A DNA stretch of 33,502 nucleotides, taken from assembly GCA_964645535.1 (NCBI GenBank), contig CAZYCQ010000018.1, positions 1 to 33,502 of the forward strand, given 5' to 3'. Shown here piece after piece: positions 29,204 through 33,502 of the stretch (position 1 is its first letter; the number at the start of each line of letters is the position of its first letter). The notes beneath the pieces are model-generated. The model was not told the DNA's origin. It made no database searches and was given only the letters and a program-made list of their open reading frames with translations. The position numbers and the translations under genes are program-made. This DNA comes from an uncultured archaeon. GTDB taxonomy: Archaea; Asgardarchaeota; Heimdallarchaeia; Heimdallarchaeales; Kariarchaeaceae.

Positions 29204-32119
29204 ATGTCAATTTCCCTTCCCCATGCTATCCCTCTTGATGAATTGTTGTCTCAGCTCCATACTGACAGGCGATCTGGTCTAAACCTCCAAAAAGTAAGGG
29301 AACACTACCGGAAATATGGGGAAAACGAAATAATCACAAAATCTCCCAGCATTTGGAAGATATATCTAGCCCCGCTTTTTGATGTTCTTATCACCATTTA
29401 CCTGATCATGACTGGATTTTTGGTCATTCTGGCGATCTGGTATCCGCCAATTCTTGGCCAAGTTCTTTTTTGGCTTTCAATTATCGCCTTCAACATGGCA
29501 ATCGCTATTTTTCAACAATTTCGTGCTCAGAAGAAACTAGATGCCTTACGTAATCTTTCACCACCCAAGGCAAAAGTCATCAGGGAAGGAGTTGTGTCTG
29601 AAATTGATGCCAAATTTCTTGTTCCGGGTGATCTTGTTATCCTTGAATTAGGCGACCGGGTTTCTGCGGATATGAGAATTCTTTCATCCGTCAACCTCAC
29701 GGTTAATGAAGCATCGCTTACTGGAGAAAGCAAGGCAGTAAACAAGGTTGAAGATGGCTCTATCCGACTGCCTGAAGACACCCCAATTGCCGAAAGAAAG
29801 AATATGCTCTATATGGGAACCTTCATACAAACTGGAAATGCTAGAGCGATTGTCTGTAACACCGGCAATGACACTGAACTTGGATCCATTGCCCAAGAAA
29901 TTTCTGAAATGCAATCATTGGAAATTCCCTTGCGAAGCAGGGTTAATGCCATTGCAAAAAAACTTGTGGCTGTCATGCTTGTCCTTTTTGTAGCCTCAGT
30001 TATCTTTAAATTCTATATCCGAATTACCCACCATCTTCCCATGACTCCAGAAGCCATCTCCCAAGATCTTGTTCAGAGTATTATCACAGCTATGTCAGTG
30101 ATGCCAATCAACATCCCACTCCTGACAACAATAATCCTCATCACGGGTGTTGTACGTATGGCTCAGGAAAATGTAATCGTCAAGGAACTGTCCGTAATCG
30201 AAACCTTGGGGCGGACATCTGTTCTGTGTTCTGACAAGACTGGAACCATGACCACTTCAAAAATGGCTGTTTCACGGATCTGGGATACGGAAAACTATTA
30301 TGCCGTCAAATTTGATGAAATTGGAACCGTTTCAATCTATCAAATCGATGAGACCATGAAACGGGATGCAACAGAGCTTGAACAGTTCCTCTTTACTCAA
30401 ATGAACCAAGTACCGAGAGATTCTGCACTTGAACTTCTCCTCACTGCAACAACTCTGAATAATGACGCCAATCTGATCATTGAGGATGTCTACGGTGAAA
30501 AGGGCTTGAATCTCTGGGAAGCCGTGGGAAATGCAACAGATGCCGCATTTCTTATCCTGTCCTACAGATCCGCTTTAGATCAGGATTATATCCGAAAGAG
30601 GTATGTCAAACTTCGTGATTATCCTTTCAACTCAACCGTCAAAAGGATGACCAAACTTTTCCATGATACCCTCGAAAATGACTACATGGTATTTTCTAAA
30701 GGAGCTGCTGAAGTTCTTCTTCCCCGATGTTCCCAAATCGGCAATGAAGGACGTCGAAAGGTTAGGGAATTGGGAAATGAAGAAAAAGAGGCTATTCAGA
30801 AGGATATTGATAGCTTTGCCAACCTCGGCTACCGTGTGGTTGTAGTTGCCTATAAAGCAATTGATTCCATCCCTGAATTTGCAAATCCTGATGAAGAACG
30901 CAATTGGATGGAAAGTGATTTGACCTTTATAGGATTTGCATGCCTTTTGGATCCTCCTCGTCCTGGTGTTAAAGAAGCTGTCCGAAAGCTTGACGAAGCT
31001 GGGATTTTTCCCATCATGATTACCGGTGATTCTCCAAAAACAGCTTCGACAATTGCAGCACAGGTCGGCATCCTTGACCCTGATGAAATAGTCATTGAGG
31101 GAAAACAAATTCCGAAACTGTCCGAGGAGGACTTTTTCAAAGTTTCTGTTTTTGCTAGAGTTTCCCCGCAGGACAAGAAGATCATTGTGGATAAATATCA
31201 AAGAAGAGGTGATGTGGTTACTATGACGGGCGATGGCGTCAACGATTCCCTAGCCATCACCCGTGCAGATGCAGGTGTTGCCATGGGAATCACAGGAACT
31301 GAAGTAACCAAAGAATCTGCCGACATTATCTTGGCTGATGATTCGTATGTAAGCCTTGTCAAGGGTGTTGAGCAGGGCAGATCTCTCTTTGAAAAAATCC
31401 GGATGGTGATCTTCTTTTTCATTGCAGTAAATATTGCTGAAGGTATCGTTTACTTCTCCACTTCTTTTCTTCCTGGTTTTGTGTTGCTCAATAATGCCCA
31501 AAGAGCGTTTATTTTTTCAATAATGCATGGTATCCCTCCAGCAGTCCTGATCTTTGATTCCATGGATAAGGACATCATGAAGCTCAAACCTCGGCAACAC
31601 GATGCGGTGATCAACAAACGGCTGTTCATGGCAATGCTCTCTTTCATTCTGCCCTTCTCAGCAATATTGATCGGTATCTATTTTTTCAGTTACAACGAAT
31701 ATATCCCCCTAACTCAAGTCAATTTGCAAGGCATCACTCCAATATTGCAAACTGATGGGTCTTCTCTTCATCCAACCTCATATTCGCAAGCTAAGGCACG
31801 AACCATGTTGATCGCTTCAATCTACTTGACAGAATCCCTTTTCATCTTCTCTATTCGGAGAATCAACCAATCATTCCTTCAATCTGTAAAGGATGCTTCT
31901 ATCTTTGTTTGGTTCATGGTGGTCTTTGGCCCTCTCATCCTGCTTATTACTATGTATTTCACTCCCATTCAAATTATTGCTGCTGAGCATGGTTTCAGAG
32001 TGGATTTATTGTGGCTTGGCCCTATGGACTGGTTAATTTGCTTATCGCTTGCTGTTATCCCAATCATTGTGCTTGAATCTTTCAAATCACTTATGCGTAA
32101 ACAAGAAGTTCAATTCTGA
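29204..32119 (+). CDS. P-type ATPase, P2-like architecture with non-canonical transport site
   Basis: YGENEI, LVPGD, LTGES, CSDKTGT, KGAAE, DPPRP, MITGD, FARVSP, MTGDGVND. TM4 reads PINIP. Start is ATG 29204 or 29165. Confidence 0.95.
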   Translation: MSISLPHAIPLDELLSQLHTDRRSGLNLQKVREHYRKYGENEIITKSPSIWKIYLAPLFDVLITIYLIMTGFLVILAIWYPPILGQVLFWLSIIAFNMAIAIFQQFRAQKKLDALRNLSPPKAKVIREGVVSEIDAKFLVPGDLVILELGDRVSADMRILSSVNLTVNEASLTGESKAVNKVEDGSIRLPEDTPIAERKNMLYMGTFIQTGNARAIVCNTGNDTELGSIAQEISEMQSLEIPLRSRVNAIAKKLVAVMLVLFVASVIFKFYIRITHHLPMTPEAISQDLVQSIITAMSVMPINIPLLTTIILITGVVRMAQENVIVKELSVIETLGRTSVLCSDKTGTMTTSKMAVSRIWDTENYYAVKFDEIGTVSIYQIDETMKRDATELEQFLFTQMNQVPRDSALELLLTATTLNNDANLIIEDVYGEKGLNLWEAVGNATDAAFLILSYRSALDQDYIRKRYVKLRDYPFNSTVKRMTKLFHDTLENDYMVFSKGAAEVLLPRCSQIGNEGRRKVRELGNEEKEAIQKDIDSFANLGYRVVVVAYKAIDSIPEFANPDEERNWMESDLTFIGFACLLDPPRPGVKEAVRKLDEAGIFPIMITGDSPKTASTIAAQVGILDPDEIVIEGKQIPKLSEEDFFKVSVFARVSPQDKKIIVDKYQRRGDVVTMTGDGVNDSLAITRADAGVAMGITGTEVTKESADIILADDSYVSLVKGVEQGRSLFEKIRMVIFFFIAVNIAEGIVYFSTSFLPGFVLLNNAQRAFIFSIMHGIPPAVLIFDSMDKDIMKLKPRQHDAVINKRLFMAMLSFILPFSAILIGIYFFSYNEYIPLTQVNLQGITPILQTDGSSLHPTSYSQAKARTMLIASIYLTESLFIFSIRRINQSFLQSVKDASIFVWFMVVFGPLILLITMYFTPIQIIAAEHGFRVDLLWLGPMDWLICLSLAVIPIIVLESFKSLMRKQEVQF

Positions 32120-32631
32120 CTCTGTTCCCTTGTTTCCTTTTCCCGTAGCATTGTTGATGATATTTTATTGCCTCTTTCGTCAGTGACCCATTGGATGGTG
32201 TAAATGAATAACGGCTTCAATCCGTTTTCCTTTCTCATCTGATTGATTTTTTCTGCTGCAGGATATGTCTCTTCTGATACCACGATCAGGTCTGCCTTTT
32301 CGTCATAAGGGGCAGGGCCCCAAGGATCCTTCAATTCATCAACTATGGCTCTCGCCTTAAATTGGGATAGGTATTCTTCAACTTTTGCTTTTCTGACTCG
32401 ATACGGCTGTATCTTATCTCCATGGCGTTTCTTGGCAAATAGACGCCTTCCAAGTTCTTCCCCAACAACGCCTACAAAAACCTCTCTTGCCAAATGAGCT
32501 GCTGTTTTGAGAAGAAGGCGGTGTGCGGCATGTAACCTATCGAATGTCCCTCCCATCACGCATTTGCTGAATGGTTTCTCCGAATTGTCTACCTCTTGCT
32601 TCAAAAATTTTTCATAAGAATCCTGCAACAT
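32110..32631 (-). CDS. coaD: Phosphopantetheine adenylyltransferase (archaeal/eukaryotic type)
   Basis: GGTFDRLHAAH, DPWGPA, IVVSEET, INQMRKENGLKPL, KISST. Confidence 0.92.
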   Translation of the reverse strand: MLQDSYEKFLKQEVDNSEKPFSKCVMGGTFDRLHAAHRLLLKTAAHLAREVFVGVVGEELGRRLFAKKRHGDKIQPYRVRKAKVEEYLSQFKARAIVDELKDPWGPAPYDEKADLIVVSEETYPAAEKINQMRKENGLKPLFIYTIQWVTDERGNKISSTMLREKETREQSQN

Positions 32632-32654: not shown

Positions 32655-33122
32655 TTAATCCGTCGTTATAAGCCCTTTGAGAATGGCCAGACCAATTGAA
32701 AGCGTTCCGATAGACCCTATATCTCCAACAGGGAGTTGCACCGATCTTCCCATGTCCAAGTCTTTTCTGGATAGGCCTGGATCGCTTCCTCCGAATACAA
32801 TTGCATATTTTCTCCCCTTGATTTGTTCTGCTAGATTTTTATCCAATTTCTCTTTTCCATAGGGTGGTGGTGCAACAAGAATCACCTCTTCAGGAGAGAA
32901 AAGATCAACTACATCCTGTAAAGAATATAGAACCAGAAAATTTGCACGTTCCTTAAAGGCCAATTTTTGAGCCGCAGGCACCCCCTTCTGTGCCGCAGAC
33001 CCTTGAGCCTGTGAAATAACCATAGTTTTGTATCCAAGTCCCGAGGCAATTCGAACAAATTCCGTACAACGACTTGAAGAGCTTATGTTATGCATAACCA
33101 CGATCGGCCATATGTCTTCCAT
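32655..33122 (-). CDS. DUF2122/COG4080-like SPOUT-fold protein
   Basis: VVMHNISSSSR, GSAAQKGVP, LQDVVDL, IVFGGSDPGLS match my recollection of this archaeal family. Confidence 0.75.
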   Translation of the reverse strand: MEDIWPIVVMHNISSSSRCTEFVRIASGLGYKTMVISQAQGSAAQKGVPAAQKLAFKERANFLVLYSLQDVVDLFSPEEVILVAPPPYGKEKLDKNLAEQIKGRKYAIVFGGSDPGLSRKDLDMGRSVQLPVGDIGSIGTLSIGLAILKGLITTD

Positions 33123-33216
33123 ATCATTCTCTTAATAGGATCATTTATGAGAGATAGGGTTGGTCACATTCATAAAACATCCCTCAGTTACTTTTTCTTG
33201 TTACCTAATTTAATTC

Positions 33217-33224
33217 TTATATAC
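33217..33224 (+). promoter_or_regulatory. Putative TATA box for the 5S rRNA precursor
   Basis: TTATATAC predicts a start near 33247-33251, exactly where the structured leader begins. Confidence 0.6.
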
Positions 33225-33278
33225 TATGGCAATTTGATTTGATATGTAAGATCAACTACGGTTGATATCCGGAGGGTT

Positions 33279-33420
33279 CTCCCACCAGAGAGTTAAGCCC
33301 GGCATCGGACGACCCATGTACTGATTTCCGCGAGGGATCGGGAAAGGCGTCACGCTGTGATACGATCACGGTCATAGAGCCGGTGTGCACCCAGAAACAT
33401 TCCGAACCTGGATTTGGGAG
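33279..33420 (+). other. Bulge-helix-bulge processing motif formed by the leader and trailer of the permuted 5S
   Basis: CTCCCA(33279-84)/TGGGAG(33415-20); bulge ATT(33412-14); central 4 bp CCAG(33285-88)/CTGG(33408-11); bulge AGA(33289-91); GTT(33292-94)/AAC(33405-07). Confidence 0.85.
33291..33413 (+). rRNA. rrf: 5S rRNA, circularly permuted (3' half 33291-33361, ACG linker, 5' half 33365-33413)
   Basis: 5S hallmarks GGTCATAG, CACCC, CCGAAC, AGTTAAGCC, GTACTG and GGGAA. Helix I ATCACGGT/GCTGTGAT; helix II GAGCCGG/CCGGCATC with bulged A; helix III CCAG/CTGG; GACGACC/GGCGTC; CTGATTTCC-GCGA-GGGATCGG. Confidence 0.9.
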
Positions 33421-33447
33421 TGACCTGTCCCCGCAAAGGTGCTTTCT

Positions 33448-33502
33448 CCAGAGAGTTAAGCCCGGCATCGGACGACCCATGTACTGATTTCCGCGAGGGA
33501 TC
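33448..33502 (+). rRNA. rrf: Start of a second 5S unit (3' half), truncated at the window end
   Basis: Exact 55-nt repeat of 33285-33339, period 163 nt. Confidence 0.85.

Follow-up and report, generated by a model that had tools for sequence, protein, structure and literature searches.

Contig C18 in the genome of an uncultured archaeon of the family Kariarchaeaceae (GCA_964645535.1, G000 below) carries two permuted 5S rRNA genes arranged head to tail, each equipped with a bulge–helix–bulge (BHB) motif of its own; the two probably share one transcript, from which each would be released as a separate 123-nt circle. The window, that is, the whole stretch of 33,502 nt that was analyzed (C18 positions 1–33502), takes in the first unit and the beginning of the second. 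Each unit begins with the 3′ half, runs on through helix I with its closing 3-nt loop, and ends with the 5′ half. In the closed Heimdallarchaeum genomes, 5S rRNA genes could not be predicted (Wu et al. 2022, PMC8813620), and none of the literature searched describes an archaeal 5S gene that is permuted. What is new here is the presence of two units whose leader–trailer pairs are not interchangeable. The features of the locus are collected in Table 1.

Table 1. Features of the tandem 5S locus and its flanks (window coordinates; C18 coordinates for features past the window)
Feature	Position	Strand	Basis or remark
Cytidylyltransferase-like gene	32110–32631		adjoins the DUF2122 gene
DUF2122 RecB-family nuclease gene	32655–33122	−	86.7 bits; upstream, divergent
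Promoter-like box CTTATATAC	33216–33224	+	conserved CTTAWATA, putative function; sole one ahead of both units
Leader 1, 5′ strand of the unit 1 outer BHB helix	33271–33284	+	duplex energies; unit 1 minimum-energy fold
Unit 1 central-helix strand CCAG and 3-nt bulge AGA	33285–33288; 33289–33291	+	unit fold; identity between copies starts at 33285
Predicted cut, 5′ bulge of unit 1	between 33290 and 33291	+	usual archaeal BHB rule
Unit 1, predicted 123-nt 5S circle	33291–33413	+	3′ half, helix I with ACG loop (33354–33372), 5′ half
Unit 1 central-helix strand CTGG and 3-nt bulge ATT	33408–33411; 33412–33414	+	unit fold
Predicted cut, 3′ bulge of unit 1	between 33413 and 33414	+	copies diverge after 33413
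Trailer 1, starts TGGGAGTGACC, 3′ strand of the unit 1 outer helix	33415–33430	+	folds, duplex energies
Leader 2, ends GGTGCTTTCT, 5′ strand of the unit 2 outer helix	33434–33447	+	paired in the unit 2 fold
Unit 2, first 55 nt (CCAG, bulge AGA, start of 3′ half)	33448–33502	+	
Trailer 2, AGAAAGCA	C18 33678–33685	+	past the window; pairs with leader 2
MMR_HSR1/RsgA-type 50S-ribosome-binding GTPase gene	C18 33751–34546 (L002:1650–2444)	+	directly downstream

An Exact Repeat Continued across a Scaffold Gap

Comparison of the window with itself confirmed a repeat that an earlier sequence-only reading had pointed out, in which positions 33285–33339 recur at 33448–33502 with 55 of 55 nt identical and a period of 163 nt. 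The 10 nt immediately 5′ of each copy are unlike (GGTTCTCCCA ahead of copy 1, GGTGCTTTCT ahead of copy 2), so the identity begins exactly at CCAG, as had been claimed. An exact 55-mer repeat within 33.5 kb cannot be attributed to chance. Tandem Repeats Finder reported no repeat in window positions 33000–33502, because the window holds merely 1.3 copies.

The same reading had taken the end of the window for the end of the sequence, but C18 continues with 100 N (33503–33602), which we read as a scaffold gap inside copy 2, and sequence resumes beyond them. The remainder of unit 2 is found in the 74 nt directly after the gap (C18 33603–33676), in exact register with unit 1, so that unit 2 (55 + 74 nt) has the 129-nt length of unit 1 when both are measured from CCAG to GGAT. 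A 5′ half had been proposed to follow the second 3′ half, together with a trailer complementary to the leader sequence ahead of copy 2, and both are present beyond the gap. Unit 2 is followed by ATA, then by AGAAAGCA, which is the exact complement of TGCTTTCT in leader 2, then by a T7 run and the ribosome-binding-GTPase gene. Since a 129-nt public contig holds all three copy-2 letters in one unbroken piece, nothing is missing between 33502 and 33603, and the true length of the gap is zero.

The two units are identical at 126 of 129 positions. All three differences (33359 G>A, 33360 A>T, and 33367 C>T) fall in helix I, where those at 33359 and 33367 together constitute a compensatory change from G:C to A:U. 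Helix I of unit 2 contains a U–U mismatch.

Identity of the Units as Permuted 5S rRNA

The linear Rfam covariance model for 5S rRNA (RF00001) scored 12.8 bits (E 8.6) at window positions 33254–33363, below its gathering cutoff of 38 bits, and its best match elsewhere in this 89%-complete genome reached 14.6 bits; the search with this model thus found no other 5S candidate in the assembled part. Because a score below the cutoff is expected from a permuted gene, this result is no evidence against 5S identity. Opening the predicted circle at helix I gives a sequence that can be aligned over its full length with six canonical Asgard 5S genes (49–65% identity), and the circle junction reads CCUGGAU|AGUUAAG where the canonical sequence is CCCGGA-AGUUAAG. 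In the opposite direction, an HMM of the unit matches canonical Asgard 5S loci in two pieces whose order is exchanged. An RNAalifold consensus of 39 related loci recovered helices I–V, with compensatory changes at 22 of 33 pairs, located in helices I, II, III, and IV/V.

A Separate BHB Motif for Each Unit

The minimum-energy fold of each unit with its own flanks displays a canonical BHB motif. In it, a 4-bp CCAG/CUGG helix stacks directly on an outer leader–trailer helix and is bordered by one 3-nt bulge per strand; the first bulge reads AGA in both units, its counterpart on the opposite strand AUU in unit 1 and AUA in unit 2, and GUU/AAC comes next. The cognate pairs have duplex energies of −18.8 kcal/mol (leader 1 with trailer 1) and −15.8 kcal/mol (leader 2 with trailer 2, a perfect 8-bp helix) versus −4.3 kcal/mol for leader 1 with trailer 2 and −10.4 kcal/mol for leader 2 with trailer 1; chimeric constructs with swapped flanks lose the BHB motif in their minimum-energy folds. 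The suggestion that each unit has its own leader–trailer pair is borne out by these energies and folds. When the 361-nt two-unit RNA is folded in one piece, neither BHB appears as such in the minimum-energy structure, which is expected of two near-identical units and lends no support either; what is concluded here about the BHBs is drawn from the per-unit folds and the duplex energies, not from this fold.

Leader–trailer helices covary at about 38 related loci, most of which share the same strict BHB layout with at least 7 of 8 leader–trailer pairs, their sequences being different yet mutually complementary. The genome also encodes candidates for the required enzymes, with matches to the splicing endonuclease family PF01974 on C43 (88.9 bits) and C7 (55.9 bits) and to RtcB (PF01139) on C21 (560 bits). 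Archaeal BHB motifs are usually cut after the second base of the bulge, and cuts at these positions would give one 123-nt circle per unit.

One alternative is that the duplication is real but one unit is silent or decaying, so that the other alone yields functional 5S RNA. The U–U mismatch in helix I of unit 2 would suit such decay, as would partial decayed copies at other loci (e.g., L114:3200–3285). We consider it improbable, however, given that 126 of 129 positions are identical with one of the three changes being compensatory, that both BHBs are intact, with a perfect 8-bp helix between leader 2 and trailer 2, and that the helix-I variant of copy 2 is the one found in the only unit of a sister genome (G002).

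The array can also be parsed as a colinear 5S gene interrupted by a BHB-type intron, in which unit 1 supplies the 5′ half and unit 2 the 3′ half, the 34-nt spacer and the bulge bases are removed between them, and the outer halves are leftovers. The two inner halves do stand in canonical order, and trailer 1 and leader 2 could form a hairpin (−8.9 kcal/mol; −10.4 kcal/mol as a duplex) beside the same CUGG/CCAG helix. This hairpin is nonetheless rich in G–U pairs, opens with a U–U mismatch, and falls short of either cognate pair in stability; the supposed leftovers are intact and 100% identical to the halves that would be used; a 3-nt loop closes helix I of each unit, which would leave the spliced RNA without free 5S ends; and single-unit relatives have no downstream 3′ half at all. 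Such a gene is most unlikely.

Two Copies, Independently Assembled

Copy number was assessed with public k=31 contigs aligned to the locus, for which all depths given are contig means and not raw-read values. In run X1, a hot spring sample that is probably the one behind the genome assembly, depth was 10.8 for a 13,262-nt node that comprises the upstream flank and leader 1 and stops 30 nt into the repeat, 23.1 for the 129-nt unit node (C18 33285–33413, with the copy-2 letters), 9.9 for a 94-nt node spanning trailer 1, the spacer, and leader 2 (C18 33384–33477), and 11.4 for a 4,462-nt node with trailer 2 and the downstream flank. Run X5, which stems from another study and a related strain (about 92–97% identical), gave depths of 12.1 for the flank, 25 for the unit, and 6.3 for the junction, the last being a 94-nt contig covering C18 33385–33477; the tandem is thus not confined to one assembly. 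Runs X2 (two flank contigs only) and X3 (one low-depth contig) do not bear on copy number.

A unit at twice the depth and a junction at once the depth of the flanks amount to exactly two copies, and since a third copy would double the depth of the junction, the single-depth junction likewise speaks for two. By contig depth, the locus consists of exactly two units. The copy number, regarded as unknown when only the window was considered, is accordingly two, from a unit node at 2x versus a spacer node at 1x, and the depth check proposed at that stage placed the repeat at about twice its flanks and not at single-copy depth.

These depths also address the suspicion that there is a single 5S unit and that the assembler or scaffolder produced the second copy from a graph loop or a mixture of two strains. 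The left piece does stop 55 nt into the repeat, with the 100-N gap lying within copy 2, and G002 was assembled with one unit. An artefact is nevertheless very hard to sustain: the junction of trailer 1, spacer, and leader 2 is a contig of its own in X1 and again in X5, which belongs to a different study; the unit has twice the depth of both flanks, where two strains sharing flanks would give 1x; and an artefact would not create the perfect 8-bp complement of leader 2 and trailer 2. With its junction found in assemblies besides the window's own and its unit at twice the flank depth, the locus is a true genomic tandem duplication. Although a k-mer graph loop leaves the number of turns unfixed and the scaffolder gap is of unstated length, an array of at least three units with extra copies hidden in the 100-N gap is scarcely credible, as the spacer node stands at 1x and the unit node at 2x, the sequences flanking the gap meet exactly in register, and any middle unit would combine leader 2 with trailer 1, a poorly pairing couple.

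Relatives and History of the Locus

The permuted 5S layout occurs in all three other genomes of the genus and in the family with the closed Ca. Heimdallarchaeum genomes. It was further recognized in 46 MAG loci, mostly labeled Heimdallarchaeota, Hodarchaeota, or Kariarchaeota, with a few other Asgard or unnamed-archaeon labels; these remained from 80 loci fetched by a pattern scan after about 34 bacterial chance matches were removed by requiring AGTYAAG upstream. Among 151 sampled genomes of the phylum, no Rfam 5S match above the cutoff was found in the family of the window or in the Heimdallarchaeum family, and a third family of the order yielding matches had one borderline Rfam 5S match only (38.4 bits); another family in this sample had Rfam 5S matches in 37 of 37. 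Heimdallarchaeaceae-type loci (e.g., L050:661–861 (−) and L042:6878–7078 (−)) feature an additional hairpin (CATCTGG...CCAGATG, about 22 nt) that separates the BHB from GGAAAGTTAAG. As this hairpin lies inside the predicted circle, a Heimdallarchaeaceae-type 5S rRNA would carry an insertion beside helix III.

Single permuted units with their own BHB are present in the same genus and at dozens of other Heimdallarchaeia loci. The genomes G001 and G003 have one permuted unit each, and the leader and trailer of G001 (trailer TGGGGTAACCTGTC) are orthologous to pair 1 of G000, from which it follows that the permutation long predates the duplication. Judged by these sequence comparisons, the permutation is old and the duplication recent and secondary. 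A tandem array had been put forward as the route by which the permutation arose; single permuted units across the genus and Heimdallarchaeia do not support this order of events.

That leader 2 and trailer 2 arose by duplication and divergence from leader 1 and trailer 1 was dropped as a candidate explanation, the similarities (10/18 and 9/18) being at the level of random 17-mers (P 0.18 and 0.37). A 12-nt pattern search for leader 2 across the genomes of the genus returned chance matches only. Units alike at 126 of 129 positions between unlike flanks imply either selection or gene conversion acting on the units or a second unit acquired with foreign flanks.

The G002 locus (L009:1381–1700; same sequence at L088:3033–3233) has a single unit that combines leader 1, the helix I of copy 2, and trailer 2 ahead of the same downstream gene; trailer 1 and leader 2 are both absent. 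Only 4 of 8 positions pair between its leader and its trailer, and its helix II has a C–A mismatch. Either the assembly collapsed a tandem here, or unequal crossover truly deleted part of the array; the low-depth contig from X3, in which a G002-like leader is linked with sequence resembling trailer 1, hints at collapse. If the unit with leader 1 and trailer 2 is real, a strong outer helix may be nonessential. At another locus, in a Heimdallarchaeia-type MAG, a decayed leader and 3′ half of a permuted 5S (L114:3200–3285) lie about 350 nt upstream of an intact unit (L114:3568–3690); the decayed piece is a remnant of a local duplication.

Genomic Context and Transcription

The array sits between the DUF2122 nuclease gene and the ribosome-binding-GTPase gene. 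The latter is found at the corresponding place in G001 and G002, and this neighborhood may reflect a functional link to large-subunit assembly. Elsewhere in the window, an ordinary tRNA-Gly(GCC) gene at 2110–2180 on the minus strand was called by Rfam (66.1 bits) and ARAGORN.

In each of the four genomes of the genus, a CTTAWATA box precedes the central helix by 59–69 nt. The 34-nt spacer between the units contains neither this box nor a T-run, and no T-run follows trailer 1. The sole T-run of the array, a terminator-like T7, starts 21 nt past the last base of unit 2; in G001, a T5 run starts 17 nt past the end of the single unit. One box upstream, none in the spacer, and one T7 run downstream make cotranscription the economical reading, and it is plausible from the sequence that both units are on one transcript. 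The sequence-only reading had envisaged one concatemeric transcript cut into several 5S circles; its single transcript stays plausible on the grounds just given, and the number of circles would be two rather than several. Near the expected transcript start, 5′ of leader 1, a hairpin (ATCAAC-TACG-GTTGAT, window 33251–33266) was observed that is kept in G002 and has its core, CAAC-CACG-GTTG, in G001.

Eukaryotic 5S rDNA arrays comprise hundreds of colinear units, each with its own internal promoter and terminator. A promoter and a terminator for each unit were not found in the present array, which has one box and one T7 run. The two systems are alike in their head-to-tail units; they differ in that the archaeal locus has two permuted units behind one promoter-like box and ahead of one terminator-like run, with release predicted to depend on RNA splicing enzymes.

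Proposed Maturation and Known Permuted or Circular RNAs

We propose that a single RNA would start from the promoter-like box and end at the T7 run after unit 2. Each leader would pair with the trailer of its own unit and so build a BHB; as transcription reaches leader 2 only after leader 1 and trailer 1 are complete, the cognate helices can form one after the other while the RNA is being made. The tRNA-splicing endonuclease would then cut in the bulges and RtcB join the ends, releasing two circles of 123 nt that regain the normal 5S sequence at the junction CCUGGAU|AGUUAAG. These circles would differ at three helix-I positions, and because the leader–trailer pairs are not interchangeable, the units would be kept from joint excision. 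The single transcription unit, the cleavage, the ligation, and a possible later reopening of the circles are all inferred from the sequence.

A bolder extension of this scheme is tentative and on balance doubtful. The circles might work in the ribosome unopened, and the leader–trailer helices might have been driven apart by selection after the duplication, so that two monomers and not one 286-nt dimer are produced. The middle of the array would then represent a canonical-order 5S split by a weak BHB-like spacer, an intermediate for the interconversion of permuted and colinear genes.

The nearest precedent is the SRP RNA gene of Thermoproteus tenax, which, according to Plagens et al. 2015 (eLife, PMC4731332), is permuted and gives a circularized RNA, as proven by RNA-seq and enzyme assays. 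Both are structured noncoding RNA genes with their parts in swapped order, and the present locus has the characteristics of the T. tenax type: a 3′ part upstream of the 5′ part, a 4-bp helix with opposite 3-nt bulges, and genes for the endonuclease and RtcB. The difference is that T. tenax is a crenarchaeon with a single SRP RNA gene, whereas the Asgard locus concerns 5S rRNA and has two units on one presumed transcript, with processing predicted from sequence. Among rRNAs, Pyrococcus and Thermococcus form circular pre-16S and pre-23S rRNA in a BHB-dependent manner as well as a circularly permuted 23S rRNA (PMC7758197, PMC12918454, bioRxiv 10.64898/2026.03.23.713588). There, as predicted here, a BHB in a leader–trailer helix is cut and ligated to give a circular rRNA; unlike here, the rRNA genes are colinear and any permutation is post-transcriptional. 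A 2026 study described archaeal 5S rRNAs as not circularized and as lying outside the BHB circular-rRNA pathway (PMC12918454).

Two eukaryotic systems share features with the array. In the permuted tRNA genes of Cyanidioschyzon merolae (Soma et al. 2007, cited in PMC4267664), the 3′ half also comes first and a circular intermediate is formed at a BHB-like site; that tRNA circle is reopened to normal ends, whereas the RNA here is a 5S rRNA and no reopening signal is evident. The mitochondrial 5S rRNA of brown algae likewise has helix I as a closed hairpin with its ends elsewhere (Valach et al. 2014, PMC4267664). That RNA remains linear and permuted when mature, its ends falling where the alpha and gamma domains meet, and neither a BHB nor ligation takes part; the break in the archaeal units is next to helix III and would be sealed.

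Implications

The two flank pairs are each mutually complementary, yet no likeness is detectable between them, which provides evidence from within one genome that the leader–trailer helix is a functional processing signal. A repeat of this kind breaks or collapses in short-read assemblies and may hide 5S copies in other MAGs. With two near-identical units on one presumed transcript, the locus constitutes a natural experiment, for which the prediction is two circles that can be told apart by three letters in helix I.
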